Source: Candidatus Omnitrophota bacterium
GTDB taxonomy: Bacteria; Omnitrophota; Gorgyraeia; Tantalellales; Tantalellaceae
NCBI GenBank assembly: GCA_049642065.1
Contig: JBAROK010000074.1
Span: 4,114-68,113, forward strand
Reading direction: 5' to 3'
DNA: 64,000 nt
A program made the position numbers and the translations under genes. The notes under the pieces were generated by a model, which searched no databases, was not told where the DNA came from, and saw only the letters and a program-made list of their open reading frames with translations. This document shows, in pieces, positions 1-51,314 of the stretch (positions within the stretch are counted from its first letter, which is position 1; every line of letters begins with the position of its first letter).

Positions 1-260
1 CTTTCGTACAATTATGGCATGGCGCCAGATTCACATACAAAGTCGCGTTAGCCCAATCCGTGAAAGGTTCATCCAATGCCTCGGCCTGACGTATCGCTTC
101 CACTTCGGCATGAACAGCGTTGACCCCGTATTTGCTATGCGACTCCAGTCTTCTTCTTGCGACCGTAACCACTATGTTACCGTCCCCGTCAACTAACCTT
201 GCAGCAACCGGTATGTTAGGATCAAGCTCTCCAGCATTCACCTTTTCTTTCGCGAACCGA
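1..260 (-). other. Domain of the giant protein: CDA/TadA-type zinc-dependent nucleotide deaminase domain, partial; continues beyond the window
   Basis: ...LVDGDGNIVVTVARRRLESHSKYGVNAVHAEVEAIRQAEALDEPFTDWANATLYVNLAPCHNCTK matches the TadA/CDA signature. HAE (H/C-x-E) is about 28 residues before PCxxC. The HAE codons are at about 104-112 and the PC..C codons at 8-22. Confidence 0.7.
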
Positions 261-3200
261 ATCAGTTCAGTCATATGCCGTCTATCCTCTTCGGAAAAGA
301 ACGCTCTTTCTCTTCTTAGTTTTTCAAGGTCATCGAGAACAGCATTGATCGAACCGCGAACTGAATCAATTCTTCCAATAAGCTCATCATAGCCGCCTTC
401 CCTTTGCGCCGCTCTAACCCCTTCCTCAAAATCATTGCTTATAAAGCCCACAAGGCTCCCTGCTTTTCCAATAGCTTGATTTCTGGATCGCGGCAGATTA
501 AAATGGACATCGTCTTTGATCCTCGCAAGGTTTAATGCAAGCTCTTCGCCCATACCCTTAATACATCTGGGACTGACTCTGCCTATCTCCTTCAAATTTA
601 TCCATAGATCCATAAACGTGGCATTTAATCTATTTGTAAAGCCCTCAATATTCCTTACATCCATGACTTCCTGGAGCCTTGCAAGAAATCCTACTTCTTG
701 TTCAATTAGCGGAAGCATACTATCATGCAAAGCAACAACTTTTTCCTTGTTATCCCCAAAAAGTTCAACACAGAAATCAATGTCGCGCTCCAGCTGTTCT
801 TTCTCAAATTCAGGACCGCTACGGCCGGTAAGTTCGTGTGCAAGCTCATGAAACAGGCCCGTCAAGACCAGTTTGCTTCTGGTCTTCTCATCTTCTATCT
901 CGTTAACCGCTTTGTTTATGCCTATAAATCCGTTTCTCCTGTGGTCCTCGAACATATAAGGTGAAACATCAAGCATGCCTATAACAATGGTATTCGGAAG
1001 CTCGTTAACGTCACCGTCGTAACGTTCAACAGTTTTTTCAAGCACTATCTGGACCAGTGCCCCTGAAAGACGTGTACCACGGTCGGTTACAACCCTGATA
1101 GCTCTATCTCCTACTGTTACCCAATTCTCCTCCGCCTTACCCATCCATATAAGAGTCCTGGCCAAGTCTTCCGTCTGATCGAGATATCTCACGTTCACCT
1201 GCATGCCACCCATCATGGAAACCGGGCTGTAATACGGGCTATCCTGACGGATCTTCATGCCTTCGGTGTGAACAGCTGAACCTGTCGCCATAGCAAGCTG
1301 TGTCGGCAATTCAAATCCTTTAGGAAAACTGCGTTCTTTAGCTTTGTGTTTTTCTATCCAATTTTTGCCCAGAAGGATCGGCGTGGGGGATTTAGTAATA
1401 CTCCAAGTAATATCACCAATAAAAGGAATCTTAATAAGACTGGCTTTCGCGTGTACGACTCCTTCCCTGTCACGTAAGATATGTTTTAACGGAAGATTCT
1501 TTAGAGCGCCTCCTTTCATTAAACTCCTGTATTTCGCCTTAGAGTCAGGCGCTTCTATATATTCCTTGTCTTTCGCGAAATATATCCCTTTCTTCCCCTC
1601 ATAATCACCAACAAAGAACCTGAAATCGCTAGGAATAACAAAAGATTCCTTTTTACCTTCCACCTCTACTTTGTGAGTATATTTTTTCTTTCTTTTGGGA
1701 AACACACATTTTACCGTGATCTGTGCCCTGTTCTTGCCTGTCGCAAAGTCCGGTGTTATCCTAACCGACTCCACATACTCCCAAGGGATTATCCCCGTGC
1801 CTTCAGCCCCTACCAGCATTTTAAGTGCAGATTTTTTTAACACAAGCGGCCTTTTATTTTTTTGGCTTATATCTCTGAGATGAAGAAGGAAATCTATAAG
1901 TGCTATTATCTTCTTATGGTCACCTTTGTTCTGTATGTTCATCTCTAAATATTTAAAGAGCATCCCGCGTACGTTACTTTCGGTGATCTCCATGGGCCCG
2001 GATTTTTCAGCAGCTTGAGCTGCTTTTATCCCGGCTCTATCCAACACCCACGCAGATACCCCAGCCCCGGCAAGCTGTAAGACCCCTCTTCTATTTATCC
2101 TCGCATCAGCTAAAAGCGAGGCGTATCCCCTTTGCCCCTCTTGCTTGATCGTCCAAACAATAGCATTAATAACCAGATGCGCCAGCATACTTAAACCCAA
2201 AGCAAGTGCCGGCTGATCGATGTACCTGAACGCGATTATAATTCCTGTAAAAGCAGCAATAATAGGCACCGTAAGAATATGTAGTTGCATTTTCACGAAA
2301 ATGGACTGGTCTGTCATGGCACTGGCCAGCTTGTCAGACCATCTCTGAAACATCATTTTACCGAAAACTACCGTTGTAGATTTATCCGCTTTCGCCTCTG
2401 CTGTGGCAAGATCACTATATCTCCATGAAGTTTCACGATCCGTTATATCTATAACTTTAGCAGGTACACTATTGATACCCCTGAGAGTGGCAGCTATACA
2501 TATGTTATAACCTTCTGCAATATAGTAATTCTCTCCCATCTTAACGACTACAGGCCGGCTCTCGGAAAGCATCTTTTTGAACTTTCCGTCTCTATAAAGG
2601 AAATATCTCAGGATAGTCCACGGGTTATATTGAACCGTGCGGGATACGGTGGTCGATTTTAGCTCAACCTCCCCGTCGTATATATTAGCTACGTTAGTGA
2701 TGTAATCTGGCTGAATACCGGCACATTCAGCAACTTCGTTTAAGACCTTTTCATACGCATCATCGGCCTCGAGATCAGCCTTATCGGCTTTTTTCTTGAT
2801 ATGCTCAATTGATAGAACATTAAGCAGTTCCCGTACTGCAGGCGGACCTCTTGTTCCCATAATATGCCCCAAAACAAATGCCCCGGCAACTGAAACAAGG
2901 AGTCCTGCAAATATACAACTATTAAGTAGCGGCATAGCCGGATTTAACCAGTCAAGGATAGCCTTTACAAGGAACGGTATACCTACCTTGCCAAGCTCTT
3001 CCAGTACGGGTGCGTGCAAAAACGGTGAATAACCGTCTATATTGGAACCAAGTGAGGCGGAGCCAGGCGCCGCATCGATTGGCGCAGGCAACCCTAAAGC
3101 TTTCTGTACAACCTTAGCTTCCGGGACATCTCTTTTCGCCAAATTCATCTTTTTCCGTTTTGCAACTAGCTCCTGGTACTTTTGCTTAAGTTGTTCCAGG

Positions 3201-6200
3201 TTGTCCTTAGCTTTTCCCTTGTCAAAGAATGACGCTTCTCCTAGATCAGGATAACTCTTAAACAGTTTTTCTGTCCTTTTTATACTCTCTCTCAGGTACT
3301 CTATAGCCTCGTCATACCCGGCAAGCACCTTTTCGATCTCTTCGTCATTGATATAACGCAATTTTTTTCGGGCACTCAGTATTACTTCTTCCGCTTTCCG
3401 CTGCACGGTATCGACCTCGTTCAGGCCTTTTCTTAAGTACTTGTTCAGAGATATAGCCCTCCAGTTCCTTATCCTTAGCTTGAAAATGAACCTACCAACT
3501 CGTTCCAATAACCCTCCGCCTATATTCCAAAGAAAGTGGCCGATATGTATTTGCCGCAGAGCTATGTCCTGGATACCCTTGGAACATACAATGTTTTCCA
3601 TGTGAGCATGTATTTCCCTGTTTATGTCCCTGCATTCAACAAAAAGTTTTTCAACTTCATCCAGATGGAAATCTTCAGCTTCTACTTCCGAAAGAACCAC
3701 ACCGTCATCCCCGCGTCCCCCGGTATAAGTCCAATGATAATACTTCTCTCCTCTCCCGCAAAAGACCTTGAGCGTGGGATGTAGGAATTCACTGCTCGAC
3801 CATATCCTTTCGGGGTGTTTGCGCGCAGTAAGTATAAAAGGAACGATCTTTACCAGCGCATCCGGTCTATCCATATTAGGCATGACCTTCATGGTCCGGA
3901 GTAGATCGGGATTTTCAAAAAGATCTTCGTACCCGAACCTCTCCTGCAAGGTCTTCAAGGAAACTTCCCAATGCTGGAACAGTGAACCATACTCTCCGCC
4001 TGGCGTGTACGGATAACCAAATGTGTCGACCGAACCGAACTCAAAAAATTTCCATTCAGGAACAAAACCTATATAGACGATCGAACCGCCCATGGAATGT
4101 CTTCCGGTATTTCGGACATACGCACGAAGAAGTGACGCAAGATAGACCAGGGCCGCATCTGTTCCCGCATCGACCCCATACTCTCCGCCCATCTGTTCTC
4201 TCAATTTCACTATGAAATCTAAGGCTTTATCCTGGTTTGTACCCTTCCAGTAATGAACGCTTGGCTCAACTCTCTCCCCAAAATTAGCTGCCACCGGAAG
4301 ATTCAGTGATGTAATCGCTAGTGGATGTTTTGAAAGCGGCGCTAAGGCCCTGGCCATGCCATCTTCACCCTTCCATTCTGACGGCGGTGCTGATAGAGGC
4401 TTAGCTTCGGGCGCTTCTGGAAGCGGACGCGGGAAATGGATGATCCCGTCAATACCCTCAACGTTAACATCGAGCCCTCTAAAATCGATAAATCCATACC
4501 GCTTACCCCCCTTAACCAGGTCCATGATCGCTCTTACTACCGGCAGAGTAATTGCCTGATGTTCTATTCCAAAAATACTTCCGTGTTCTCCTTCGCAAAC
4601 AGCAGCAACAAGCCCGTAAGGGATACCTCTATCCTCCAGCTGCTTTGGTATCTGACTAGAATCTCTTATATGAGCGTAACCTGTGATTACTGCCATATGG
4701 GCACAAGGATCTTCCTTAAGCGCCTTCTCCATTTGCCCGGCAAGATATTTACCCATGTACATGCCACGCTGAGAGCTTTGCTCATTATCATCCCAGGATG
4801 GATCTCTCTCCCCTGCCGGCATATCAATAAAAACAACTTTAATCCCTAAACGCTGCGCGACCGTTACCAGCTGTTCAAGACGATGCGGTATCCAGCAACT
4901 CTCGGAGATCTCGCTTATATTATCAACCTTGAGATCCGACGGTATCTCCAGCCCCAGGTGGGTAACACCGGCAGCTTTGAGCTGTTCAAGATAATTGACA
5001 AAACCTTTCTGTATACCCAAAGCACCATGATGGGTATCGCCGATAACCAGCACGTTCCTATCGGCAAACAACCCCTTGAAATCTACACCCTCGTGCCACC
5101 GGTTCTCAACGATCTCTTCCCACTTCTCATTATTCGTTCCGAATAAACCGCTACCATCGACGACACTCAAGGGCTTTTCTACCTGCTCTATTCTCTTCTT
5201 CCCCCTAAACGCGTTGTATATCCGCTTTGCCAAACCAGCAACAATTCCGCAGATCTCGTAGATGATTATAACAACACCACCTACAAGACAAACAGCAAGT
5301 AACATAACTAGTGTTGCTGCCGCCCACGAGCTCAGTTCTTTTCCCGCTTCGCTAGCCTTTACTGCGGTCTCAGCGGCCTCGATTATCCCTGGGGTTAACA
5401 AGCCAATAAGAAATACCAACAATCCAACCGGTCCACGTGAAATACCCGAAGAACCTGAATTCCCTTCTTCCGCTTTCTTTCCCTTCTTTTCGTTATATTG
5501 CTCAACCGCTTTTATTACATATTTGTGTGGATCTTTTGCAACAATTCTTAACTTCTCGGTCTCAGGATCCAATAGAATCGGTACTCTTTCGCCCTCTTCG
5601 TCCCTCCTTATTTCTATCCGACCACCTTGGTTTACTATTACAGTGAAATCTACACCACCAAACAGTTTCCCGTCTTTAAAAACTCCTGTTTTTTGTTCGC
5701 TTTTTACCTTTTTCACTCGTTCTCTAAGCATCTTTATATTATGCTCAACTATAAGGCGCGCTGTCCTTGCTTCAGCCAGAGCGACTTTATCTGCGGACGT
5801 CCACGTGCTAGTGAGCTTCTCGTAATCTATCCCCCTCTTTCGAAGCACCCTATTCACTTCCTTGCGCGTCTCTTCTGCCTCTTCGAGAAGATGATCCCGG
5901 TATTTCCCTTCTCCGGCCTTCTCTGCTCTAAGTTTAAGTTCCGCGATCTGGTAAAAAAGCCCCTGTATTTCCTCCATCGCTTTATCTGATAATGTCATGG
6001 GCACTTCGACCAGATGCCCCCATCTTCCTTCAGGGTCCATCTTTATCTTTCCACTCTCATCGACTTTAAGGCTAGGTGTTTCATTAAAATAGAGCTTATC
6101 TCCTCTCATTACCAAGCCCTGTCTGAAAAGACCTTCAAGAGCATTTGTATCCATCGGTCCTCTTTGTTCTCTTATGGGTCCGGCATCCTCGAAAGCAAAC

Positions 6201-9200
6201 CTACTTGAAGTGCTGCGCCTTGCCCTTTTTACTGATTTCCCTTGTGCCGGCTCCTCAGCAAAAGGCATTCTCCTGCTATCTGACTTTTTCGGCGGCTTCA
6301 TTACTTTTGTCGTATCCTGTCCTGGGTACGGCAACTGAATTTCCTGCTTGTTTTCTCTTATATAATCGCTAAGATCTTTGTCTGCCAAAGGAAACATCTC
6401 GCGCTGAAGGATACGTAAAAGATAATGCGGATTCTCATCCCACCCTTCATCCCAACCTTTCTCCCCTTCCTCATCCCTTTGCTCCTCCATTATGAACTGC
6501 ATAGTGTCCGTGGACGGCACAATAGACGTCTGATCCTCTCCGTCAAATGATATGACTACGTACCCGGATTCCATCCTAAGCTCCATGATACCTTTTTTGA
6601 TCAGATACTCTCCTATCTCGTGGAATTCAGCGATCGGATTCTCCTTAAGTTCCGAATAAAAGGCCAGCAGGTCATTTTCGGATGACGTAAAAGCGAAAAG
6701 GTCTTCTACCAGCACCCTGAACGTATACTCCTTGGCCTTTGTCTGGGCGTACCGGACCAGCATAGGATAGATGATATCTCTATAGTAAAACTCATTACCG
6801 GCAATAGCCGAGAGATTGGCCCCCAAATCCCTCATATTCATAAGTTCCCGCGGGATCAAACCAACAACATGTCTGTTTCCCTTGGAATCTATCGCCCTAA
6901 ACTTGCTGTTATCCGGGGACACCATCTCCACCCTCGCACTATTACCTATCTGTAAAGAAGGGCTCACTCCCTCTTCTAAATATTTTATTGCCGCGTCGAC
7001 AGACGCAAACCGGTCGTTCGGATCCCTCCTGATGCATCTCATGATAAATTCCGCAAGAGCATCCGGGATATCTTTCCCTTCTTTTTTAGCCATATCACGT
7101 ATGTCTGTGGGTTCCACGCGGGATTTATTATTGAAGTATTCGGCAATATTCCTTCCGTCGTACGGCAAAGGTACTTTGCCAGTCAATGCTTTGTACAATA
7201 TAATCCCTAATCCGTACACATCAGTACTTTTGTTATATTTTCCTTCTTCATGCAGCGGAAAAACTTCCCAAGGAAGATATTCAGGAGTACCTCGCACATC
7301 ATTGATTTTAAGCTCCCCGCTTTCCGGGAAACGCAGAGCAAGATCAAAATCCACCAAGAAAACAAGACTGGAAAAATCAAATTTGCCGCCTTTTCCCGGT
7401 AGAAGCATATTTGCCGGTTTTATGTCGGTGTGAACTATCCTTTTGCCCTGCACCTTTCTGATAATTTCCAGAACTTTTTTTGCTAGAGTTGCGGCCTCAT
7501 CCGGATTGAGCTGTCTTCCTGAATCGATTACAGTATCCAATGACTCTCCCGGAACAAACTCCGTAACCATAAAGAAATCCTCTCTGCCGTTACCACGTTC
7601 CCAGCGACCCATATCAAGCCCCTTAATAACCCCTCCAACTTCGCTCAAATATCTCATAACAAAATAGCCCTTTAAAAAGCTTGGGAGTTTTCTTCGTAAG
7701 TCCTTTGCTCCGGAATAACGTAAAACTCTCACGGTAACATCTGCCCCAGTCTTTAAATCTTTCGCTTTATACACCATAGAATACTCTCCGGTACCTAATA
7801 ACTTCTCCAACCTGTATCTTCCGGCAAGCATTGACGGGTCGCGCGAAGTGGCTGTTTCCTGCACACTTTTGAACATGAGCCGCATATCTGACAGTAAAGA
7901 TTCCATCTCTTCGCCACTCATAAGAAAACGTTCTGTTCTGACTAATTCATCAATGACCCATCCGATCAAAGCCTCCCTCAAGCGCACCAGATATTCTTCA
8001 ACACGCTCATTTTTCTCCTCCCGATCCGTAGCAGGCTTAAAGCAAGACCGCGCTTGCGATTCGCCAAGCAATATTTCTCTAATCGCTACTTTTGCAGAGT
8101 CATCCATATTTACAAGAGCGTCCAAGCTCTCACTAAAGACCTCATATTCCCCAGTCTCTGATTCTAGCTGCCCCTTAACATCTTTAAGGTTTTCAAAAAA
8201 CCTATCGACCAGAGAAGATTCCGACTCGACCGGATTATACCCACTGAAGGTAGAAGACAACAGTTCCACAACTAACCGGTAGTGCTTATCGCTAAAAAGC
8301 TTAATTTTTGTAGTCAGTTCTTTATCGTCGTCAACACTCCTATCAATAGAACCGTCTATGGAACTGTCCGTCAAAGAACGTCCGATCTGCGACGTATCTG
8401 GCTCCTCGTCACCAAAAAGGGTAAGCTGTCTCGGTTTGCCACGAGGCCTATCTTCCATCCGTGACCTGACTTTTTCTACAAGTTCCCGCGCCTTCTCTTC
8501 GGATAGTGACATCCACAAATCCTTTTCCCACTCATCCTCGGTCCAGGCAGTCCAGGTTATTGGCATACTTCTGAACCCTATGCCGCGAAAGAAATCTTTT
8601 GCGGACTTTCCTCCCTGTTTATCTTTATATTCTTCGTCCTCGGCAGGATGTACTATATACAGATTACGGCTAACTTCTTCTTCCGGTTCAAGATATACGG
8701 CTTCTCCGTCCGGAGCTACCATAGTGTTCTCTTGCTCTAACTCTTCCATGGCACGTTCCGTTATCTTGGCAATAAGAATTTCTCCTATTCCTTCACTCCG
8801 GTGCTTTGCGGAAACCTCCATGTAATCCCCTACCCATACTTTCCTGTTCTTCTCCTTGAATGGGAACTCTCCTTTCGTTGAAACAGATAGCCCAAGGATA
8901 TTCCCAGATGCGTCTTCCAGCTTTATCATACAAACCGGTCCACTCCCACCAGCAGCCCTTTTCGCGGCACTGTCCCACATCCCTCTGCTAAAGTAAGGCT
9001 TCTCTTCCTGTTCGAACCACCTGTCCAGCAGACTGCTCATCGCAGCAGAATCATTCACTTCCCGGGCATAATACCTCTTGTTCCCGATGCTGAATGGTCC
9101 GCTTATTGCGTCCTTGTGAGAAGACGACGCCTGCATTTGCTGTATCAGGCGAGTAAGCTCTATATCCTCTTGATCCCTACCAAATGTACCCTTACCAAAA

Positions 9201-11791
9201 AGATCCAGCTGAACAGCCCGGAGTAGGTAATGTGGGTCCTTTCCCCATGTCTTAGACCATTTCTCGTCTTTTGCTATTAACCAGTTACGGACATGTGTCG
9301 AAAGGAATACTCTAACAACCCTGCCGTCCTGCGTCCGTATTTCGACTTCTTTCCCGTCCCTGACCAAGCTAAGACTAATGGTGTATTTCCTGTTAAGGAA
9401 CTCTCCAATCTCGTGAAACAGAGCAATGGGGTTATCGATCAACTCTTCCTGCAGAGCAATAAGGTTATCTCCAGCAGATACAAACCCGAACAGATCCCCA
9501 ACAAGAGGATTAAAAGAATATAACTCCGGCGGAGAGTTCTCCAAAAGTTCTAAAAATAGTTCCATCACGGACCTGCACTCGGGCTTGCGAGCCATGAACA
9601 ACCTTAAAGCCTCTTTCGCTTTTCCAAGCTCGGCCGCGTTAAGCTCCATCCGTTCTTTAAGAACCTTATTCCTGTCCTCCGCATCCGAAACAGAAACATA
9701 TTTCCTGTCGTTTAATCCAAACACCCTGCTGGGTATTGCCTTTTTACCTATTCGCGAAGACTCCGTTACAACGGAAGACTTTTTCGCCACGAAACCGCCC
9801 AAACGCGCATATCTGTTCTCTTTACGCTTCATAAAAAATTCTTGAGGAATAAATCCGGCAAAGCCTAATTCTTCCAATTTCTTCTGAACAGATTCCTCTT
9901 TTTCGTGAATCCCTATGAAAACTACTTCTACATGCCCGGCCTTGATATCACTATATAATTCGTCCGCCCCGCTGTATTCGGATTCGTTTTTAGTATTGCC
10001 TCTTTTATCCTTGTACACAAGATGAGGCTGTGTGTCCGGATCATCTATAAGAGTGCGTAACGAAGTAGACAAAAGACCGTCTCTCAGCAACCTCTCTATC
10101 ACTTCTGTCTGCATAGGGTAACGCCCATCAAGACCGTCAGGTTCGGAATCCCTGAAATCAAGATAAGAAACTGTCCCACCCGGTTTAAGAACGCGTGCGA
10201 TCTCTTCAAGGATAAACTCCCGATCATGTTTATTGATTACCTGACTAAGCGTGCGGTGCATAACAAGCGCGTCAACTGACGCATCCGGCAATGGAATGCC
10301 ATGAGCCAAGTCACTCTGCTCAAATGCCAGCGCCGGTTTTTTTGCCTGTTTCATTTCTTTTACAGCCGCCCATGCAGAAGCATCTCCAACAAGATTTCCA
10401 GACATTTCGATCGTTTTTTTCTTAGCTTTTTTTATGTTATTTGGGTTAATGTCCAGCCCGAGAACCGAAAACCCTTTATCGTTCATCCACCTGGCTATCT
10501 GCCCTTCTCCACAGCCAAGATCCACAATAACAACCGGCTCGCTTTTCTCAGATACCTGTTCCTTTAAAGTGTTAACGAATTTTACGGGATACGTCCCCTC
10601 GTAAGGGTATTCCGTTCCGCTATACCCTGTGATCTGAGAAGCTGTGAATGTCACAACATTTTCGTTTTTCTCGCCTTTTCTCGAAACCAATACAAGCATA
10701 AGATCCGCAAAAGACCTGCCTCTCTCAATTATGCTAAATCCTGCATCTATTGCCGCCTTCCCCGTATCGGCTATTTCATAGAATTCCGCCATCAGCTTCT
10801 GAAATTCATTATCGCTTAACTCGTACTCCGGTTCGGCTACATCCTCAGCGACTATCATCCCTCCCGGCTTCAGCACCTTGACACATTCACCAAAAAACCT
10901 CTTTTGCGCATTAAAATGTGCCTCCGCTCTCTTACGTATATCTTCCCGAGTATGCCCTAGCGCATCAATCCCACTGGGCACAAAATCAAGAATATTTCTG
11001 AAGATAATCGCATCGAACTGATCACTAGGCAACGTAAAGGGCTGGTTAAAATCCATTTCCACTACTTTTACCTCATCTGCTCCTGCCTTTATAAGACTAC
11101 CCTTGAGTCTACTTATATCCTCATGATCTATATCAACGGCTGTGACCTCTGCGCCCTCACTTGATAGCGCAAGTATATGATCCGGGTTTGACCCTACTCC
11201 CAGTTCAAGTACTTTCTTGCCTTTTAGATTTCCTCCCAATATTTCTTTGAGCTTGGATACTATCGCAGGAGCCTTGCCTGCACCTTTCTTCGTATCGTCC
11301 GAAATGCTTTCTATTTTGATCTTGCTTTCGTCTTTTTGGATCTCGGCTATATCCTCGCAGCTAGAAGTTATCCTGAACTTCTTTCCCTTATTAGGACCGT
11401 CAAATATTTGAAGGTCTACACGAGTCTTCCCGTCTTCCTTTCTCGGATTGGAAAGAACATCTAGGAGACGGTCTCTACTTACTTCAGGCGCAACGCTGAG
11501 CCACTTATCCAACTCAGAGTTTATATCCTGAAACGGGACCATATCTTCTTTAAGCGCCATCGCGAGAATACACGCAAGTTCTAAACGTACCTGCGTATCG
11601 AACTGGCGGCCTGTTACATCCAGGATAGGCTTGAACATTGATTGGATCTGCAGCGTGTGGTGGGCATTAATACGAAGCTCACGACCCATATCGGGATACG
11701 CCCATGCGATATTATTGATTGTGAATAGGCATACTATTGCTATCGCGATTATCTTGATCAGTGTCCTGTGCTTCCTATTTAAGGAGTTCAT
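1..11791 (-). CDS. Giant secreted multi-domain protein, at least 3,930 aa, 3'-truncated by the window edge. Modules: signal peptide, 2x SAM-MTase, GNAT, atypical STK-like, ChaN/Tiki-like, ParB-like, HExxH, CDA/TadA-like deaminase
   Basis: Manual codon-by-codon minus-strand translation from ATG at 11791 to position 1 met no stop. The ORF track lists no closed minus ORF of 60 aa or more in 1-11790, only short antisense plus ORFs. An in-frame TAA lies 21 nt upstream of the ATG. N-terminus reads MNSLNRKHRTLIKIIAIAIVCLFTINNIAWA, a Sec signal with an AxA site. Domain motifs are listed in the separate entries below. Confidence 0.85.
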   Translation of the reverse strand, partial: MNSLNRKHRTLIKIIAIAIVCLFTINNIAWAYPDMGRELRINAHHTLQIQSMFKPILDVTGRQFDTQVRLELACILAMALKEDMVPFQDINSELDKWLSVAPEVSRDRLLDVLSNPRKEDGKTRVDLQIFDGPNKGKKFRITSSCEDIAEIQKDESKIKIESISDDTKKGAGKAPAIVSKLKEILGGNLKGKKVLELGVGSNPDHILALSSEGAEVTAVDIDHEDISRLKGSLIKAGADEVKVVEMDFNQPFTLPSDQFDAIIFRNILDFVPSGIDALGHTREDIRKRAEAHFNAQKRFFGECVKVLKPGGMIVAEDVAEPEYELSDNEFQKLMAEFYEIADTGKAAIDAGFSIIERGRSFADLMLVLVSRKGEKNENVVTFTASQITGYSGTEYPYEGTYPVKFVNTLKEQVSEKSEPVVIVDLGCGEGQIARWMNDKGFSVLGLDINPNNIKKAKKKTIEMSGNLVGDASAWAAVKEMKQAKKPALAFEQSDLAHGIPLPDASVDALVMHRTLSQVINKHDREFILEEIARVLKPGGTVSYLDFRDSEPDGLDGRYPMQTEVIERLLRDGLLSTSLRTLIDDPDTQPHLVYKDKRGNTKNESEYSGADELYSDIKAGHVEVVFIGIHEKEESVQKKLEELGFAGFIPQEFFMKRKENRYARLGGFVAKKSSVVTESSRIGKKAIPSRVFGLNDRKYVSVSDAEDRNKVLKERMELNAAELGKAKEALRLFMARKPECRSVMELFLELLENSPPELYSFNPLVGDLFGFVSAGDNLIALQEELIDNPIALFHEIGEFLNRKYTISLSLVRDGKEVEIRTQDGRVVRVFLSTHVRNWLIAKDEKWSKTWGKDPHYLLRAVQLDLFGKGTFGRDQEDIELTRLIQQMQASSSHKDAISGPFSIGNKRYYAREVNDSAAMSSLLDRWFEQEEKPYFSRGMWDSAAKRAAGGSGPVCMIKLEDASGNILGLSVSTKGEFPFKEKNRKVWVGDYMEVSAKHRSEGIGEILIAKITERAMEELEQENTMVAPDGEAVYLEPEEEVSRNLYIVHPAEDEEYKDKQGGKSAKDFFRGIGFRSMPITWTAWTEDEWEKDLWMSLSEEKARELVEKVRSRMEDRPRGKPRQLTLFGDEEPDTSQIGRSLTDSSIDGSIDRSVDDDKELTTKIKLFSDKHYRLVVELLSSTFSGYNPVESESSLVDRFFENLKDVKGQLESETGEYEVFSESLDALVNMDDSAKVAIREILLGESQARSCFKPATDREEKNERVEEYLVRLREALIGWVIDELVRTERFLMSGEEMESLLSDMRLMFKSVQETATSRDPSMLAGRYRLEKLLGTGEYSMVYKAKDLKTGADVTVRVLRYSGAKDLRRKLPSFLKGYFVMRYLSEVGGVIKGLDMGRWERGNGREDFFMVTEFVPGESLDTVIDSGRQLNPDEAATLAKKVLEIIRKVQGKRIVHTDIKPANMLLPGKGGKFDFSSLVFLVDFDLALRFPESGELKINDVRGTPEYLPWEVFPLHEEGKYNKSTDVYGLGIILYKALTGKVPLPYDGRNIAEYFNNKSRVEPTDIRDMAKKEGKDIPDALAEFIMRCIRRDPNDRFASVDAAIKYLEEGVSPSLQIGNSARVEMVSPDNSKFRAIDSKGNRHVVGLIPRELMNMRDLGANLSAIAGNEFYYRDIIYPMLVRYAQTKAKEYTFRVLVEDLFAFTSSENDLLAFYSELKENPIAEFHEIGEYLIKKGIMELRMESGYVVISFDGEDQTSIVPSTDTMQFIMEEQRDEEGEKGWDEGWDENPHYLLRILQREMFPLADKDLSDYIRENKQEIQLPYPGQDTTKVMKPPKKSDSRRMPFAEEPAQGKSVKRARRSTSSRFAFEDAGPIREQRGPMDTNALEGLFRQGLVMRGDKLYFNETPSLKVDESGKIKMDPEGRWGHLVEVPMTLSDKAMEEIQGLFYQIAELKLRAEKAGEGKYRDHLLEEAEETRKEVNRVLRKRGIDYEKLTSTWTSADKVALAEARTARLIVEHNIKMLRERVKKVKSEQKTGVFKDGKLFGGVDFTVIVNQGGRIEIRRDEEGERVPILLDPETEKLRIVAKDPHKYVIKAVEQYNEKKGKKAEEGNSGSSGISRGPVGLLVFLIGLLTPGIIEAAETAVKASEAGKELSSWAAATLVMLLAVCLVGGVVIIIYEICGIVAGLAKRIYNAFRGKKRIEQVEKPLSVVDGSGLFGTNNEKWEEIVENRWHEGVDFKGLFADRNVLVIGDTHHGALGIQKGFVNYLEQLKAAGVTHLGLEIPSDLKVDNISEISESCWIPHRLEQLVTVAQRLGIKVVFIDMPAGERDPSWDDNEQSSQRGMYMGKYLAGQMEKALKEDPCAHMAVITGYAHIRDSSQIPKQLEDRGIPYGLVAAVCEGEHGSIFGIEHQAITLPVVRAIMDLVKGGKRYGFIDFRGLDVNVEGIDGIIHFPRPLPEAPEAKPLSAPPSEWKGEDGMARALAPLSKHPLAITSLNLPVAANFGERVEPSVHYWKGTNQDKALDFIVKLREQMGGEYGVDAGTDAALVYLASLLRAYVRNTGRHSMGGSIVYIGFVPEWKFFEFGSVDTFGYPYTPGGEYGSLFQHWEVSLKTLQERFGYEDLFENPDLLRTMKVMPNMDRPDALVKIVPFILTARKHPERIWSSSEFLHPTLKVFCGRGEKYYHWTYTGGRGDDGVVLSEVEAEDFHLDEVEKLFVECRDINREIHAHMENIVCSKGIQDIALRQIHIGHFLWNIGGGLLERVGRFIFKLRIRNWRAISLNKYLRKGLNEVDTVQRKAEEVILSARKKLRYINDEEIEKVLAGYDEAIEYLRESIKRTEKLFKSYPDLGEASFFDKGKAKDNLEQLKQKYQELVAKRKKMNLAKRDVPEAKVVQKALGLPAPIDAAPGSASLGSNIDGYSPFLHAPVLEELGKVGIPFLVKAILDWLNPAMPLLNSCIFAGLLVSVAGAFVLGHIMGTRGPPAVRELLNVLSIEHIKKKADKADLEADDAYEKVLNEVAECAGIQPDYITNVANIYDGEVELKSTTVSRTVQYNPWTILRYFLYRDGKFKKMLSESRPVVVKMGENYYIAEGYNICIAATLRGINSVPAKVIDITDRETSWRYSDLATAEAKADKSTTVVFGKMMFQRWSDKLASAMTDQSIFVKMQLHILTVPIIAAFTGIIIAFRYIDQPALALGLSMLAHLVINAIVWTIKQEGQRGYASLLADARINRRGVLQLAGAGVSAWVLDRAGIKAAQAAEKSGPMEITESNVRGMLFKYLEMNIQNKGDHKKIIALIDFLLHLRDISQKNKRPLVLKKSALKMLVGAEGTGIIPWEYVESVRITPDFATGKNRAQITVKCVFPKRKKKYTHKVEVEGKKESFVIPSDFRFFVGDYEGKKGIYFAKDKEYIEAPDSKAKYRSLMKGGALKNLPLKHILRDREGVVHAKASLIKIPFIGDITWSITKSPTPILLGKNWIEKHKAKERSFPKGFELPTQLAMATGSAVHTEGMKIRQDSPYYSPVSMMGGMQVNVRYLDQTEDLARTLIWMGKAEENWVTVGDRAIRVVTDRGTRLSGALVQIVLEKTVERYDGDVNELPNTIVIGMLDVSPYMFEDHRRNGFIGINKAVNEIEDEKTRSKLVLTGLFHELAHELTGRSGPEFEKEQLERDIDFCVELFGDNKEKVVALHDSMLPLIEQEVGFLARLQEVMDVRNIEGFTNRLNATFMDLWINLKEIGRVSPRCIKGMGEELALNLARIKDDVHFNLPRSRNQAIGKAGSLVGFISNDFEEGVRAAQREGGYDELIGRIDSVRGSINAVLDDLEKLRRERAFFSEEDRRHMTELIRFAKEKVNAGELDPNIPVAARLVDGDGNIVVTVARRRLESHSKYGVNAVHAEVEAIRQAEALDEPFTDWANATLYVNLAPCHNCTK
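700..1000 (-). other. Domain of the giant protein: HExxH zincin-like metallopeptidase motif region
   Basis: LVLTGLFHELAHELTGRSGPEFEKEQLE, with HELAH at about 826-855. Confidence 0.4.
2140..2300 (-). other. Segment of the giant protein: second predicted transmembrane-helix cluster, preceded N-terminally by a twin-arginine-like motif
   Basis: Hydrophobic runs IFVKMQLHILTVPIIAAFTGIIIAFRY and ALALGLSMLAHLVINAIVWTI. The RR-like motif ARINRRGVLQLAGAGVSAWVL lies at about 2060-2100. Confidence 0.45.
2440..2560 (-). other. Segment of the giant protein: degenerate ParB/Srx-fold-like segment
   Basis: RPVVVKMGENYYIAEGYNICIAATLRGINSVPAKVIDITDRE follows the ParB N-domain pattern (Y.iIaGeRR..Aa.l.G...vPa.V.d) but has GYN in place of the GERR/GHHR arginines. 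Confidence 0.25.
4600..5110 (-). other. Domain of the giant protein: ChaN/Tiki/TraB-superfamily-like domain
   Basis: VLVIGDTHHGALGIQKGFVNYLEQLKAAGVTHLGLEIP fits the ChaN N-terminal pattern [VI]LLGExHD...H. The C-terminal AVITGYAHIRDSSQIPKQL fits the ChaN GxGHV...P..L motif. Confidence 0.4.
5230..5440 (-). other. Segment of the giant protein: internal pair of predicted transmembrane helices
   Basis: GPVGLLVFLIGLLTPGII and WAAATLVMLLAVCLVGGVVIIIYEICGIVAGL are long hydrophobic stretches separated by a short polar loop. Confidence 0.5.
7000..7830 (-). other. Domain of the giant protein: Hanks-type Ser/Thr protein-kinase-like domain with non-canonical catalytic motifs
   Basis: Glycine loop LGTGEYSMVYKA. 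A VTVRVL strand with R where VAIK has K. Catalytic loop HTDIKPAN (HRD becomes HTD). DFDLA (DFG becomes DFD). GTPEYLPWE. DVYGLGIILYKALTG. Confidence 0.65.
8700..9010 (-). other. Domain of the giant protein: GNAT-like acetyltransferase motif region
   Basis: VWVGDYMEVSAKHRSEGIGEILIAKITERA resembles GNAT motif A (R/Q-x-x-G-x-G/A), about 8762-8803. Confidence 0.4.
10120..10600 (-). other. Domain of the giant protein: class-I SAM-dependent methyltransferase fold, copy 2
   Basis: VVIVDLGCGEGQIARW (about 10495-10545) and ARVLKPGGTVSYLDF (about 10155-10190). Confidence 0.65.
10800..11270 (-). other. Domain of the giant protein: class-I SAM-dependent methyltransferase fold, copy 1
   Basis: Motif I-like VLELGVGSNPDHILAL (about 11171-11212) and post-II motif VKVLKPGGMIVAEDV (about 10845-10885). 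Confidence 0.6.
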
Positions 11792-16527: not shown

Positions 16528-16890
16528 ATGATCGAAATACTTCCAAAAAGCCAGGGAAATATTATGGGCATTAAGGCGAGCGGGCGACTTACCGCCCAGG
16601 ATTATGAAGAAATACTTATCCCAAAAATCGAAGAAGTGCTTAAAAATAACGAGCGTGCACGTTTTCTGTATTATATTTCCGATGATCTTGAAGGTATCGA
16701 GCCGGGCGCTATGTGGGACGACGCAAAGTTCGCTAGCGGCCACAGGGATAGGTTCGACAAGATAGCTATAGTCACTGACTCAAAATGGATGCAGTGGTCC
16801 AGCAAACTTGTTTCTTACTTCCTGCAAGGCGAGGTAAAATCTTTCCCGGGCGATCAGCTGGATGAGGCCTGGATCTGGATAGAAGCATAA
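16528..16890 (+). CDS. STAS/SpoIIAA-like domain protein (DUF3478-like)
   Basis: The only convincing plus-strand gene. AAAGGAGG Shine-Dalgarno 6 nt upstream of the ATG. Sequence pattern matches SpoIIAA-like small proteins. Confidence 0.6.
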   Translation: MIEILPKSQGNIMGIKASGRLTAQDYEEILIPKIEEVLKNNERARFLYYISDDLEGIEPGAMWDDAKFASGHRDRFDKIAIVTDSKWMQWSSKLVSYFLQGEVKSFPGDQLDEAWIWIEA

Positions 16891-27131: not shown

Positions 27132-28583
27132 TTAATCTTTGCTTATAGGAAGATGGATGGTAGCGATAGTACCCTTCCCTACCTCGCTGGTAAATTTCAG
27201 GTCCCCCTCATGAGCTTTGACAATACTATAACATAAAGGGAGCCCTAGCCCTGTCCCCTTTTCCTTGGTAGTAAAAAATGAATCAAATACCCTCTTGAGG
27301 TTCTCCTCCGCTATTCCGCTGCCTGTGTCCTGGATATCTATACACAGATCCTCACCCTTCTTTTGGGTCCTGACCGTGATCGTCCCGCCATCCGGCATAG
27401 CATCTGCCGAGTTATTCACAAGGTTCAAAAACACTTCATACATACGCTTCTCATCGATCTTCACCATTGGAGGTGAGGGCATATACTCTTTTCTGATCCT
27501 TATGTTCTTCAAAGAGTATGGATGCTCTATAAGATGCAGGACATAATCTAAACTCTCGTTGATATCGACTTCTTTAAAATCGCCTTTACTCGGTTTTGAA
27601 AAATGCAAAAACCTTTGGATAAGATCATTTGCCCTGTCACATTGTTCGCAGATTATCTCCAAGCCTTCCTTGATATCCTCCTGCCTTGCCCCCTCCATCA
27701 ATGAAATTTGAGCTCTTCCCAATATTACCTGAAGGGGGTTTTTTATCTCATGTGCCATATCTGCCATCATTTCTCCGAGCTGCGCAAGCTTCTGGCTAGT
27801 CTCTACCTTCTTCCGATATGTCAAGTTCCTTAGCGTTGCCTGTATAGCAATTATCTTGCCCTCTTTCCTTAACGGAATGCCTTTGACTTCATAGGGAACT
27901 CTTCCCCCCTCTTTAGTCATGCCTTCCACTTCAATGACCGGGGGCTCTTTTCCTATCAGGATCTTCCCCATGGCAGCCATCAATTTCGGCACAAACTCCT
28001 TTGCGATTATGCCACACGTAAAAACGTTCTTGCCTTTCATATCATCTCGGCTATAACCGCTTTCTTCTTCGAATTTTTTATTCAGATCAAGAAATCTACC
28101 TTCAGGAGTAACAACAGCGATCAGATCCGCTGCATTCTCAAAAAACATATAATATTTCTCTTCACTCTCCTTCAATGCCATTTCTGCTTTTTTATGCTCC
28201 TTACGTATCTCCATTTCCCCTAATTCGCGATCGATAGCTACGCTAAGACGCATTAGTTTGCCCTTGGTAATAAAATCCTGTGCACCGGCTTTCATTGCCT
28301 CCATGGCTATATCTTCCTCCATCCCCCCGGAAACTATCAAAAAAGGAAGATCAATATTCTTCTCCTGCATCACTCTCAACGCCCCAAGACCACTGAATTT
28401 TGGAAGCTTATAATCCGCTATAATGACATCCCACTCGCTTTTATCAAGTGCGTCAGACATCTCTTCCTTTGTCTCAACTCGCTTGACCTCAGGCGCATAT
28501 CCTCCCCGCTCCAGCTCTTTCGTAAGCAAAAGAGCATCATCTTCAGCGTCCTCTATCATTAACACACGTAATCTTCCGGGCAT
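27132..28583 (-). CDS. Hybrid sensor protein: N-terminal receiver, PAS and histidine kinase
   Basis: Receiver (LMIEDAEDD...DVIIADYKLP...K). PAS (ENAADLIAVVTPEGRFLDLN). HisKA H-box (MAHEIKNPLQ). HATPase (DTGSGI...GTGLGLPL). Confidence 0.8.
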   Translation of the reverse strand: MPGRLRVLMIEDAEDDALLLTKELERGGYAPEVKRVETKEEMSDALDKSEWDVIIADYKLPKFSGLGALRVMQEKNIDLPFLIVSGGMEEDIAMEAMKAGAQDFITKGKLMRLSVAIDRELGEMEIRKEHKKAEMALKESEEKYYMFFENAADLIAVVTPEGRFLDLNKKFEEESGYSRDDMKGKNVFTCGIIAKEFVPKLMAAMGKILIGKEPPVIEVEGMTKEGGRVPYEVKGIPLRKEGKIIAIQATLRNLTYRKKVETSQKLAQLGEMMADMAHEIKNPLQVILGRAQISLMEGARQEDIKEGLEIICEQCDRANDLIQRFLHFSKPSKGDFKEVDINESLDYVLHLIEHPYSLKNIRIRKEYMPSPPMVKIDEKRMYEVFLNLVNNSADAMPDGGTITVRTQKKGEDLCIDIQDTGSGIAEENLKRVFDSFFTTKEKGTGLGLPLCYSIVKAHEGDLKFTSEVGKGTIATIHLPISKD

Positions 28584-28586
28584 GTA

Positions 28587-29030
28587 TCAGTCCTTCGTTT
28601 TCGGGGGCTCGTTAAGAAGCAGCCAATATAATCCAAGCTGGCGCACCGCTTCGCTGAACTGCTCAAAATCAACGGGTTTTCTGACATAACTGTTACACCC
28701 AAGGTTGTACCCATTCAGCACGTCGCTTTCCTCTTGTGAGGAAGTCAATATAACCACAGGAACGACCTTTGTTCTTTCATTGGAACGCAGTTTCTTTAAC
28801 ACTTCAAGCCCGTTCAATTTAGGGAGTTTTATGTCCAGAAGAACGACTGCCGGCATATTTCCCGGTTCAAGCTCGGAATATTTTCCCTCATGAAATAAAT
28901 ACTCAAGTGCATCCTCTCCATCATTCAATACTACAACTTCATTGGTGATATTATTATGCTTCAATGCGCGTATCGTAAGATCAATGTCGTCCTGATTATC
29001 CTCGACCAGAAGAATAGCTTTATCACTCAT
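28587..29030 (-). CDS. Single-domain response regulator receiver
   Basis: ILLVEDNQDD...VVLLDIKLPKLNG...VVILTSS...K. Confidence 0.75.
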   Translation of the reverse strand: MSDKAILLVEDNQDDIDLTIRALKHNNITNEVVVLNDGEDALEYLFHEGKYSELEPGNMPAVVLLDIKLPKLNGLEVLKKLRSNERTKVVPVVILTSSQEESDVLNGYNLGCNSYVRKPVDFEQFSEAVRQLGLYWLLLNEPPKTKD

Positions 29031-29039
29031 GATCTCCCC

Positions 29040-31325
29040 CTACTTGTTCGGTATCGTAAAATAAAACGTAGCGCCTTTCCCTACCTTGCTATCCGCCCAG
29101 ATGCGTCCGCCATGACGGGTAATTATACGCTTGACCGAAGCAAGACCTATGCCGGTCCCCGGGAATTCTTTTTCCGAATGTAAGCGCTGAAAAGGCCCGA
29201 AAAGCTTATCAGCATAAGCCATATTGAACCCGACTCCACTATCTTTCACGAAAAATGCCCTTTCACCCGCAAGATCCATACAGCCAACCTCTATTTTTGC
29301 ACCCGGCCTTGTTTGGGTAAATTTCCATGCGTTACCAATAAGGTTCTCAAGAACTATCTTCATCAAGCGGTCATCCGCTTTTGTTTTCAACTTCGGATTA
29401 ACCGTAAAATCAACTTTTCGTTTCGGTTCGCTGCTTTTTAAGTCCTTTATTACCTCCTTAGCAATACTGCTTATATCAATATCCTTTTTATGGATCTCGT
29501 GGCGCGTCACGCGCGAAAGCATTAAAATATCCTCAATAAGTTGTGCCATACGCTGGCTTGCTTCACGTATACGGTGCAAATATCCCTTGGCATCCTCATC
29601 CAGCTTATCTTGATAATCTTCCAGTATGATCTGACTGAACCCGTCCATGCTCCTGAGTGGGGCTCTGAGGTCATGCGAAACGCAATAACTGAATGCTTCC
29701 AGTTCCTTGTTTGCCTCACCGAGTTCCTCGGTCCTGATATCTACAAGTTCTTCAAGATGCTGCCGGTATGTTTCAAGCTCAAGTTCAGCTTTTTTCTTGT
29801 CAGTAATATCTTTTACATGTTCTATAACCCCCACCATATTGCCTTTAGAGTCCTTAAATGGGTACGATGAAAGGAGAATCCACCCCTTAGGCTTCTCCTC
29901 AGAAGGATAAGGCACTACCGATGACTGCACTTCGCCAGTCTCAATCGTCTTGACCGCAGAACACCAAGGACAGATACTATCTCTCTTCTGATAAACTTCA
30001 TAGCATTTTTTACCGATAAGTGGCCCTGCCTCACTATACATCTTTTTCATCCACAGGTTAGTTTTAACCACGTTCATATCCTTGTCCAAAATATTTATGC
30101 CATCTTGTATGCCATCAAAAATTGACTGCAAAAAACTTTCACTATCCCTGAGTTCTTCCTCCGCTCTTTTACGCTGCGTTATATCATGCGCATACAAGTT
30201 CGCGTATCCGCCATCGATCACAGGTGCTACATGAACCGAATATATCCGCCCATCCACCTCAGCCTCTTCTACCGTATCCTCCCCCGTCCTAATTGCTTCG
30301 CTAATTAGTTTCGTCCATGTATCGGACGCGTTCTTTCCCACACCGGTATTCCAGTTTTTGAGCATACCTTCAGCAGACTCATTCGCATACAGCACTTTAC
30401 CATCCTTATCAACACGTAGCACTGGGCTGGGGTTTTCTGACGGAAACTTAGCAAGATTTTGTATTTCTTCTTCGGCCTCCTTCTTCTCAGTAATATTCTG
30501 AACCATTGAAAGAACGCCTACCACCGTACCATCAGACTCTTTCAATGGTGTATTCGCCCAGCTACAGACAATAGTCCTCCCATCTTTTGTAACATTTTCA
30601 TTTACACTATGTGCAGTTTCGTCCGCTGCGAGTAGACGACTCCAAATAACATCTACATGAGACTGGACCTCTTTCGGCACAATAAGGTCATATGCGTGTC
30701 TAGCTTCCGCTTCCTTTGCGGTAAACCCGAATATCTCAGTAGCTGCAGGGTTCCATGTTTTAACCCGAAACTCTTTATCCCAAACGATCAACCCTATGGG
30801 CATCCTATTAAATTGCAATTGCAGATATTCTTCTAAACCCCGGGTCTCTTCCTGCATCTTTTTTATTTCTGTTATATCTACTATCGTGTTAGCATAATAT
30901 TCAGGCTTTCCTTCTTCATCTTTAATAATAAAAATGTTCTCGATCACTGGAAATTCTCTGCCTTTACCGGAACGAAGAACGGATTCCCCTTCCCATTTTC
31001 CCTCATCTTGAACGATGCTATGCACTTCCTCAACAAACCTCTTATAAGATCCCGCCGAATAATAGTCACTGATATTCTTTTTGTAGCAATCTTCTGGCTT
31101 CTCTTCATCGAACATACGACAGAGAGCGGGATTAACATACATTACCTTTCCTTCCAAAGTAGCCATCCCGAACCCTTGGCCTGCGGTCTCCGCGAATCTG
31201 TGAAAAATGGATATCTCTTTCTCCGCTTTCCTGCATGAGGATTCGACACCTTCAAGCTCCTTAACTTGTCTCCGTAGGCTATTTACCTCTTCTATCAGTT
31301 GTTCCTTAGTCTCTTCTTTTCCCAT
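29040..31325 (-). CDS. Multi-PAS sensor histidine kinase
   Basis: N-terminal coiled coil, multiple PAS/PAC repeats. H-box SHDLRAPLRSMDGF. HATPase GTGIGLASVKRII...GKGATFYFTIP. Confidence 0.8.
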   Translation of the reverse strand: MGKEETKEQLIEEVNSLRRQVKELEGVESSCRKAEKEISIFHRFAETAGQGFGMATLEGKVMYVNPALCRMFDEEKPEDCYKKNISDYYSAGSYKRFVEEVHSIVQDEGKWEGESVLRSGKGREFPVIENIFIIKDEEGKPEYYANTIVDITEIKKMQEETRGLEEYLQLQFNRMPIGLIVWDKEFRVKTWNPAATEIFGFTAKEAEARHAYDLIVPKEVQSHVDVIWSRLLAADETAHSVNENVTKDGRTIVCSWANTPLKESDGTVVGVLSMVQNITEKKEAEEEIQNLAKFPSENPSPVLRVDKDGKVLYANESAEGMLKNWNTGVGKNASDTWTKLISEAIRTGEDTVEEAEVDGRIYSVHVAPVIDGGYANLYAHDITQRKRAEEELRDSESFLQSIFDGIQDGINILDKDMNVVKTNLWMKKMYSEAGPLIGKKCYEVYQKRDSICPWCSAVKTIETGEVQSSVVPYPSEEKPKGWILLSSYPFKDSKGNMVGVIEHVKDITDKKKAELELETYRQHLEELVDIRTEELGEANKELEAFSYCVSHDLRAPLRSMDGFSQIILEDYQDKLDEDAKGYLHRIREASQRMAQLIEDILMLSRVTRHEIHKKDIDISSIAKEVIKDLKSSEPKRKVDFTVNPKLKTKADDRLMKIVLENLIGNAWKFTQTRPGAKIEVGCMDLAGERAFFVKDSGVGFNMAYADKLFGPFQRLHSEKEFPGTGIGLASVKRIITRHGGRIWADSKVGKGATFYFTIPNK

Positions 31326-50443: not shown

Positions 50444-50455
50444 CTATATTCCTTC

Positions 50456-51313: not shown

Positions 51314-51314
51314 A

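Follow-up and report, generated by a model that had tools for sequence, protein, structure and literature searches.

Bacterial kinases with a rewired active-site ion pair were recently described as the DYD family, whose members are membrane-associated kinases of Actinobacteria and Firmicutes; about 60% of them carry an Arg at the beta3 Lys position, the alphaC Glu is missing, the second Asp of DYD was modelled as salt-bridging the beta3 Arg, and AlphaFold3 models put ATP into the pocket at high confidence (bioRxiv 10.1101/2025.01.12.632604; PMC12599244). According to these two sources, POMK (SGK196) also has neither the beta3 Lys nor the alphaC Glu, the pair being relocated with the acidic residue supplied by a DxD-type motif, and PMC12599244 reports that nucleotide binding is retained in KSR1 and EphB6 despite a beta3 Arg. 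In this study, we analysed a kinase-like domain encoded within a giant gene on a 64,000-nucleotide stretch of Candidatus Omnitrophota bacterium (assembly GCA_049642065.1, contig JBAROK010000074.1, positions 4,114 to 68,113 of the forward strand), here called the window, and found that it represents a conserved Omnitrophota variant of this rewired (pseudo)kinase type, situated in an already described class of long proteins rather than in a new kind of system.

The plus strand at 7000–7830, where a sequence-only reading had placed a protein-kinase-like domain, is a run of stops, and the domain is encoded on the minus strand. There, a stop-free frame runs from 11812 past the window start, with an ATG at 11791 (MNSLNRK...), and the first 3,930 codons (2..11791) of an open reading frame (ORF) of 5,108 amino acids (aa) lie within the window. 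Its full length was obtained from NCBI contig JBAROM010000086.1 and from the cluster representative P0035; the GenBank entry is MGB2651530.1, annotated as "methyltransferase domain-containing protein" of Candidatus Omnitrophota bacterium. The kinase domain covers aa 1319–1612 (6956–7837, minus strand), slightly more than the span first proposed.

Failure of hidden Markov model searches to place the region in the kinase superfamily had been named beforehand as the refuting test. Pfam PF00069 (Pkinase) matched residues 1326–1596 over profile positions 1–253 of 263, and its 117.8 bits (E=7e-34) lie far above the cut-off of 31.7. The top NCBIfam match was the kinase part of PknB/Stk1 (E=1e-35); the PASTA kinase model NF033483 (PknB/Stk1) reached 123.9 bits against a cut-off of 450, with only the kinase portion of the model aligned. 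A phmmer search against PDB sequences led to StkP, PknB, PknA, and CaMK-type kinases at about 1e-20. An AlphaFold2 (AF2) model of the domain, built from 22 sequences, showed every canonical secondary-structure element at a mean predicted local distance difference test score (pLDDT) of 88.2 and a predicted template modelling score (pTM) of 0.88, and Foldseek returned PknB structures as the best matches (5u94, E=2e-20, TMt 0.89). Based on the profile matches and the model, the region is a complete Hanks-type (eukaryote-like) Ser/Thr kinase fold, clearly contrary to the refuting outcome. HipA, SelO, and FAM20, which had been suggested as atypical kinases for alignment, were not among the Pfam matches at E<=0.1; the same scan revealed APH (E=0.09) and Kinase-like PF14531 (E=0.005), both under their cut-offs. 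Two defence kinases were considered and rejected, namely MAD6 of the MADS system (NF047741, 101.8 against 460; PADLOC mad6, 2e-44) and PD-T4-6 (PADLOC), since the matches spanned only the generic kinase domain. No MADS gene set was found near the giant-protein gene.

Motif states were read from three alignments, i.e., a pairwise alignment with StkP, a MAFFT alignment of 21 homologues, and an hmmalign alignment of 356 kinase domains (taken from the 150 best proteins and, in addition, the first 24 matches). Translation of the minus strand confirmed all four motifs quoted in the sequence-only reading (GTGEYS, VTVRVL, HTD, and DFD) together with their coordinates. Its statement that each landmark is mutated held for the beta3 Arg and for DFD but went too far for the other two. 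The glycine-rich loop GTGEYS (aa 1333–1338, 7778–7795) has the normal GxGxxS form, and its third glycine position is commonly Ser, Ala, or Gly (35, 69, and 224 of the 356 domains, respectively), so that the loop should not be called mutated. The catalytic loop HTDIKPAN (aa 1454–1461, 7409–7432) is a plain non-RD loop, which retains not only the catalytic Asp1456, as had been noted, but also Lys1458 and Asn1461. As read from the alignments, both are ordinary variants.

Judged by the same alignments, the real departures from a canonical kinase are three. In the strand VTVRVL (7721–7738), which aligns with VAVKVL of StkP, Arg1355 (7727–7729) takes the place of the beta3 (VAIK) Lys, a column occupied by Lys in 330 and by Arg in 15 of the 356 related domains. 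Gly1375 (7667–7669) in FLKGYF is aligned with the Glu of StkP FQREARAM, i.e., the alphaC Glu found in 305 of the 356, and lies within the predicted alphaC helix of the AF2 model (model residues 49–68); the sequence holds no other acidic residue within one turn of it in alphaC. Thus, both members of the Lys/Glu pair, which the sequence-only reading had proposed to look for, are lost, and the alphaC loss had been overlooked. Finally, DFD (aa 1481–1483, 7343–7351) keeps the metal-binding Asp1481 and has Asp1483 at the glycine position of DFG. A WNK-type relocated Lys was discarded as an explanation, the glycine-rich loop having Ser1338 there and no Lys. An insertion, GKFDFSSLV, of lower pLDDT separates the catalytic loop from DFD (7361–7387) and is lineage-specific. 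Further downstream, the P+1/APE segment reads GTPEYLPWE (7265–7291), with APE changed to PWE and Glu1509 retained, and both the alphaF Asp (D1524 in DVYGLG) and the subdomain XI Arg (R1594) are kept. Since the VAIK Lys is missing, the domain is a pseudokinase by sequence definition (as quoted in PMC12599244); the sequence-only reading, which had offered an atypical kinase and a pseudokinase, named the right alternatives for a Hanks-type domain of this kind.

In comparison with the DYD family, the Hanks fold, the beta3 Arg, the lack of the alphaC Glu, the Asp at DFG+2, the HxD Asp, the catalytic-loop Asn, and the Asp of DFG are all shared, a likeness judged from the family description (representatives WP_153409036.1 and WP_039364684.1). 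Unlike DYD, the Omnitrophota domain has DFD, in which the diagnostic second Asp is combined with the canonical Phe instead of Tyr. The KFDF insertion also sets it apart, DYD kinases having been published as lacking family-specific insertions, and it varies further in HTD and PWE. The two also differ in phylum and in setting, the domain studied here lying in the middle of a 5,108-aa multi-enzyme chain instead of forming a simple membrane-associated kinase. Given the published DYD rewiring, the active-site logic of the Omnitrophota domain is already known in kind. KSR1 and EphB6 share the Arg in place of the VAIK Lys, but they are eukaryotic signalling scaffolds from an unrelated context with no compensating Asp at DFG+2. 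PknB and StkP provided the best sequence (about 1e-20) and structural (TM 0.89) matches and have the same fold, catalytic loop, and P+1 loop; they differ in that identity is only about 24–29% and that here PASTA domains are missing, the Lys-Glu pair is replaced, and the loop is of the non-RD type. MNK1/2 are active Hanks-type kinases with DFD in place of DFG, the DFD being tied to an autoinhibited DFD-out state. In contrast to the domain described here, neither the Lys of beta3 nor the Glu of alphaC is replaced in them.

The relatives of the domain came from an exhaustive search of 1.84 billion cluster representatives, which yielded, besides the query protein itself (P0035), two further lineages. 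P0036 (MFC1548485.1, annotated as "protein kinase", Omnitrophota) is a 7,388-aa homologue whose kinase domain is 73% identical and shows the motif series GTGAYS / VTVRVL / FLKGY / HTD / DFD / PWE, as against GTGEYS / VTVRVL / FLKGY / HTD / DFD / PWE in the query. P0077 (MGB3112220.1) is a partial protein of 2,361 aa with a kinase identity of 34–38%; it represents a 90% cluster of 14 fragments from several Omnitrophota metagenome-assembled genomes (MAGs), with the series GSGTFS / VVMRIL / FLRGY / HADLTSAN / DFDYSMR / PPE. Among the 356 domains, the combination of Arg, Gly, and DFD was found only in these three lineages, which also have the KFDF insertion in common, an insertion missing from the other aligned kinases. 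Word-indexed protein searches with the domain and with the three-lineage alignment returned only generic kinases of up to 550 aa and at most 33% identity; they missed even the identical 5,108-aa protein, and their negatives on giant proteins are therefore not trustworthy. Scans of GTDB representative genomes and JGI metagenome contigs returned no further members of the clade but unrelated kinases at 22–25% identity. Within these searches, the clade thus appears to be rare and confined to large Omnitrophota proteins.

P0035 and P0036 are mosaics, in which some blocks are common and others are not. Within the collinear block 677–1621, identity amounts to 73% for the kinase domain, 62% for a repeated module described below, 52% for a GNAT-like region, 46% for the pre-kinase region, and 28% for the linker, and further common blocks range from 37 to 67%, which makes the kinase domain the best-conserved part of the protein. 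Conservation within the domain is concentrated in the pocket: the three lineages agree at 13 of the 16 positions of the nucleotide pocket and catalytic site, as compared with 32% of all columns (hypergeometric p=5e-5). The 13 are two glycines and the Ser of the G-loop, the beta2 Val, the beta3 Arg, the alphaC Gly, the His and Asp of HxD, the Asn, the C-spine Leu, and the three residues of DFD; the VAIK Ala, the gatekeeper, and the catalytic-loop Lys (Thr in P0077) vary.

The conservation of the block together with the invariance of the pocket rules out a decaying relic. That several hallmark residues are altered would suit a domain free of selection, or an assembly or annotation artefact, but three lineages have exactly the same altered residues, the kinase is the most conserved block in the comparison with the 7,388-aa homologue, the AF2 model is confident, and the same 5,108-aa ORF is present in three independent assemblies with at most one amino acid difference. 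The window DNA is also identical to the overlapping contig JBAROM010000086.1 (L007) across 9,673 nt. We regard relic and artefact as effectively refuted.

The same invariant positions bear on a second possibility, namely a catalytically dead pseudokinase without nucleotide binding, whose role would be purely that of a scaffold or protein-binding module, docking or orienting neighbouring domains or partners. The canonical pair has lost both Lys and Glu, the P0077 lineage has no catalytic-loop Lys either, and there are documented bacterial pseudokinases that lie within membrane proteins and act as scaffolds (PMC12599244), for which the MviN/MurJ pseudokinase domain and EssB/YukC may be compared. 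On the other hand, the G-loop, the HxD Asp, the catalytic-loop Asn, the metal-binding Asp of DFD, and the C-spine Leu are invariant across lineages of about 35% identity, and a pure scaffold would need none of the 13 conserved pocket positions; EssB/YukC, by contrast, is degraded in all these motifs (PMC12599244). Judged from the alignments, the pocket conservation is hard to reconcile with a nucleotide-free scaffold, and we consider this explanation unlikely, though worth keeping in view.

Covariation in a larger set of kinase domains points to a link between the second Asp and the lost Glu. Where the DFG+2 residue is acidic, the alphaC position is not Glu in 15 of 16 domains, as against 43 of 467 otherwise (483 domains, Fisher p=4e-14), although this statistic ignores phylogeny and includes degenerate tandem pseudokinase repeats, a first point that weakens the interpretation given below. 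When only domains with a preserved DFG Asp are counted, the proportion becomes eight of nine. Two stand-alone kinases, P0194 and P0289, are canonical in the beta3 Lys, HRD, and the catalytic-loop Lys and Asn, yet show a Gly in alphaC (RFLRG and RFNRG, respectively) together with VDFDIAKG. These sequences suggest a stepwise path, in which the loss of Glu and the gain of DFD may have come first and the change from Lys to Arg later.

Thus, we propose that Arg1355 would be held by Asp1483 of DFD in place of the alphaC Glu, by analogy with the DYD family, and that the rewired domain may still bind ATP-Mg. If so, its role within a single cassette (aa ~1135–1613) of a modular multi-enzyme protein would be that of a Ser/Thr kinase with weak or atypical activity, or that of a nucleotide-dependent switch. 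For ATP-Mg binding through an Arg1355–Asp1483 pair combined with weak or atypical Ser/Thr kinase activity or a nucleotide switch, we see about an even chance. Several further observations weigh against it. A change of the beta3 Lys to Arg is a classic kinase-dead substitution in canonical kinases. The loss of the catalytic-loop Lys in the P0077 lineage (HADLTSAN) speaks against efficient phosphotransfer, at least in that branch, and together with the Lys-to-Arg change argues against strong catalysis. The Arg1355–Asp1483 contact is an inference, and ATP binding in the DYD family is itself a modelled prediction (bioRxiv 10.1101/2025.01.12.632604). Moreover, if the domain is extracytoplasmic, there would be no ATP for it unless the protein reaches another cell.

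The relocated ion pair, analogous to that of POMK, also raises the question whether the enzyme, though of kinase fold, phosphorylates something other than protein, e.g., a glycan or another small molecule, and the literature on giant Omnitrophota proteins describes an abundance of carbohydrate-active and cell-wall-related domains in them. In POMK, however, the basic partner is a Lys of the G-loop and the substrate is a sugar, whereas here the base is in beta3 and the elements for protein substrates are intact: the P+1/APE segment (GT-x-x-Y-x-P-x-E), the alphaF Asp, and the subdomain XI Arg are all retained, which points to protein rather than a sugar as the substrate. The closest neighbours in sequence and structure are likewise protein kinases (PknB, StkP, and the CaMK type), and no carbohydrate-active domain was detected in the 5,108-aa protein. 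We therefore rate a POMK-like enzyme as very improbable.

The kinase domain is embedded in an array of repeated modules and enzyme domains. Iterative hmmsearch revealed a repeated module of about 160 aa, with copy 1 at aa 727–887 (9131..9613, minus strand; DLFGF...HEIGEF...PHYLLR), copy 2 at aa 1657–1814 (6350..6823, minus strand), preceded by LQIGNSAR, which comes directly behind the kinase domain, and copy 3 at aa 4150–4320 of P0035, outside the window. Its consensus reads ...SPPELY.F..LVEDLFGFAS...N.IALH..L..NPVALFHEIGEYL...(D/N)PHYLLRALQRE.FG..D..LT. In total, 25 copies were found, two to four per protein, in eight large proteins and a 258-aa fragment, the hosts being Omnitrophota, one Elusimicrobiota MAG, and metagenome records. 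All copies agree at seven positions (D, A, H-E, H, R, and D), and some copies read HE[IL]GH, i.e., HExxH. The module had no Pfam or PDB sequence match, and Foldseek matched nothing with its AF2 model, which is poor (pLDDT 62.9, three sequences). The module could represent a domain not described so far, perhaps one that processes proteins in the manner of a metallopeptidase; zincin-like autoprocessing is a tempting idea, but our data do not support it.

A motif of the (S/P)QIGKRA type lies 40–60 residues upstream of most module copies, none matching in P0038. Its sites in the query are at about 9752 (aa 680), 8387 (aa 1135), and 6950 (aa 1614) on the minus strand and at aa 4108 outside the window, and the kinase cassette is flanked by SQIGRS (1135) and LQIGNSAR (1614). 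The motif is a candidate cassette boundary or cleavage site. P0037, the 258-aa ENA fragment, is 76% identical to the module following the kinase, and the C-terminal end of another module precedes it there instead of a kinase, which suggests that enzyme cassettes including the kinase were gained, lost, or shuffled among homologues. One could go further and imagine an exported polyprotein of cofactor-dependent enzymes, among them the two methyltransferases, the GNAT-like domain, the rewired kinase, and the toxin-like deaminase, in which the module lies between the cassettes as an autoprocessing protease that frees the kinase cassette (aa ~1135–1613) in a host or prey cell in a MARTX-like manner; we consider this a clearly improbable scenario.

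Upstream of the kinase cassette, the chain begins with a signal-peptide-like N-terminus (aa 1–31, 11699..11791, minus strand) consisting of a basic n-region, a 17-residue hydrophobic core, and A-W-A before YP; the putative signal peptide, MNSLNRKHRTLIK-IIAIAIVCLFTINNIAWA followed by YP, has a hydropathy peak of 2.23 and is conserved in P0036. It is followed on the same strand by two S-adenosylmethionine (SAM)-dependent methyltransferase domains. The first (aa ~190–343, 10763..11224) was detected with Pfam Methyltransf_11/25/31 in two or more stretches, with RsmB-F matches at aa 200–314 and a PADLOC mad2 match at aa 177–343, the latter being rejected as generic methyltransferase similarity and not MADS. 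The second (aa ~412–560, 10112..10558) matched Methyltransf_11 at aa 423–541 (E=8e-29). Behind the first repeated module, a weak GNAT-like region (aa ~927–1095, 8507..9013; Acetyltransf_1 E=0.03, under cut-off) and, after the degenerate SQIGRS, the pre-kinase region (aa 1161–1318, 7838..8311), which has no Pfam or NCBIfam family match, lead up to the kinase domain.

Downstream, a hydropathy scan revealed transmembrane-like segments at aa 2122–2190 (5222..5428), then a basic stretch, KRIYNAFRGKKR, and further hydrophobic segments at aa ~2959–2977 and 3170–3213, all encoded on the minus strand. In the unannotated parts of the protein, we observed "VLVIGDTHHG" around aa ~2260, a stretch that looks ParB-like (aa ~3060–3125), and in the otherwise unannotated C-terminal region a HELAH (HExxH) motif at aa 3648–3652 (~839–853, minus strand). 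The part of the protein within the window closes with the start of a cytidine/deoxycytidylate-deaminase-type zinc domain (aa 3842–3930, 2..268, minus strand; dCMP_cyt_deam_1 E=5e-11, MafB19-deam E=6e-5). The zinc domain (HAE...PCxxC) shares 64% identity with its counterpart in P0036 and has a weak, secondary similarity to the polymorphic-toxin deaminases MafB19, SNAD4, and NAD1; its continuation in P0035 matched SNAD4 and MafB19. Outside the window, the third repeated module is accompanied by another methyltransferase-like region.

This arrangement leaves room for two placements of the kinase domain. If the N-terminal signal is used, residues 30–2121 would be exported. With five to seven hydrophobic segments beyond the N-terminus, hydropathy and the positive-inside rule give an ambiguous topology, and the strongly basic stretch after 2159–2190 would fit a cytoplasmic N-terminal region if both neighbouring segments span the membrane. 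Domains that depend on SAM, acetyl-CoA, or ATP normally work in the cytoplasm. Secretion of the giant protein, taken as given in the sequence-only reading, is thus no more than one possible reading: the signal-peptide-like N-terminus is kept in the 7,388-aa homologue, but the topology is ambiguous and the cofactor-dependent domains are of a kind that is normally cytoplasmic.

These data bear directly on the idea of a fully competent exported effector kinase, in which the giant protein would be secreted or displayed on the surface and its kinase would work in host or prey cells alongside its methyltransferases, GNAT-like region, and deaminase. In its favour, the cofactor-dependent enzymes fall into the region exported if the conserved signal is used, and the deaminase part resembles the toxin-type deaminases MafB19 and SNAD4. 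Published surveys assign signal peptides and/or transmembrane helices to 94% of long Omnitrophota proteins and weigh extracellular effectors of a predatory or parasitic lifestyle, carbohydrate-active enzymes (CAZymes), and inner-membrane-anchored proteins, none of which is settled. On the other side stand the ambiguous topology, with a basic stretch that fits a cytoplasmic location of aa 30–2121 if both segments span the membrane, and the beta3 Arg, which speaks against full catalytic competence. Within the window, the neighbours of the giant-protein gene include none for secretion systems, immunity, PP2C, or FHA. A secreted effector for prey manipulation is a speculative reading that would fit published ideas on giant Omnitrophota proteins; a fully competent exported kinase seems quite unlikely to us.

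Among long proteins of the phylum, the Archaeovorins are the closest described class (West-Roberts et al. 2023, bioRxiv 10.1101/2023.11.21.568195; 2026 preprint 10.64898/2026.06.07.730766). As these sources describe them, they share with the 5,108-aa protein the phylum, the domain shuffling, the architecture of signal peptide and transmembrane segments, and a mosaic of methyltransferase, GNAT, and other enzyme domains, and they differ in being giants of 30,000–147,000 aa. Their hallmarks are glycosyl transferases, glycosyl hydrolases, peptidases, methyltransferases, and NUDIX domains (bioRxiv 10.1101/2023.11.21.568195; preprint 10.64898/2026.06.07.730766); glycosyl transferases, glycosyl hydrolases, and NUDIX domains had no match in the 5,108-aa protein. 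Term searches of both preprints and of Seymour et al. 2023 yielded no passage on a domain of the Ser/Thr kinase or pseudokinase type.

Outside the giant-protein gene, the window has the content of an ordinary bacterial chromosome, encoding, e.g., PolA, Rho, FtsH, MurA, MnmA, and a formate-tetrahydrofolate (THF) ligase. Based on these housekeeping neighbours and the coding pattern on the minus strand, the giant-protein gene is real and chromosomal. Coding-strand bias is extreme, with a negative GC skew in each 2-kb bin of the window (1–64000): the long stop-free frames are all on the minus strand except for three short plus-strand ones, which overlap minus-strand genes and are probably their shadows. 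The single plus-strand gene called is a SpoIIAA/STAS-like ORF of 120 aa (16528–16890). We also noted two neighbouring PAS-containing histidine kinases (27132–31325, minus strand), one with an N-terminal receiver domain, and a methyl-branch Wood-Ljungdahl/folate cluster (49703–53629, minus strand) comprising the formate-THF ligase, an FTCD_C cyclodeaminase-like gene, FolD, and an MTHFR-like gene. The latter fits the acetogenic metabolism published for some Omnitrophota classes.

Altogether, the conserved motif pattern suggests that the domain is most likely ATP-binding and weakly active or switch-like and not a decayed relic. The rewiring between a beta3 Arg and an Asp of a DxD motif is thereby extended from the DYD family of Actinobacteria and Firmicutes to an unrelated, uncultured phylum and to a different setting, a cassette within a multi-enzyme protein. 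Since the loss of the alphaC Glu and the gain of DFD occur in otherwise canonical stand-alone kinases, the ion pair may be relocated stepwise, and such domains should not be dismissed as dead. Being compact, well folding, and conserved, the domain offers a tractable test case both for Arg/Asp-rewired kinases and for the function of the long proteins of Omnitrophota.

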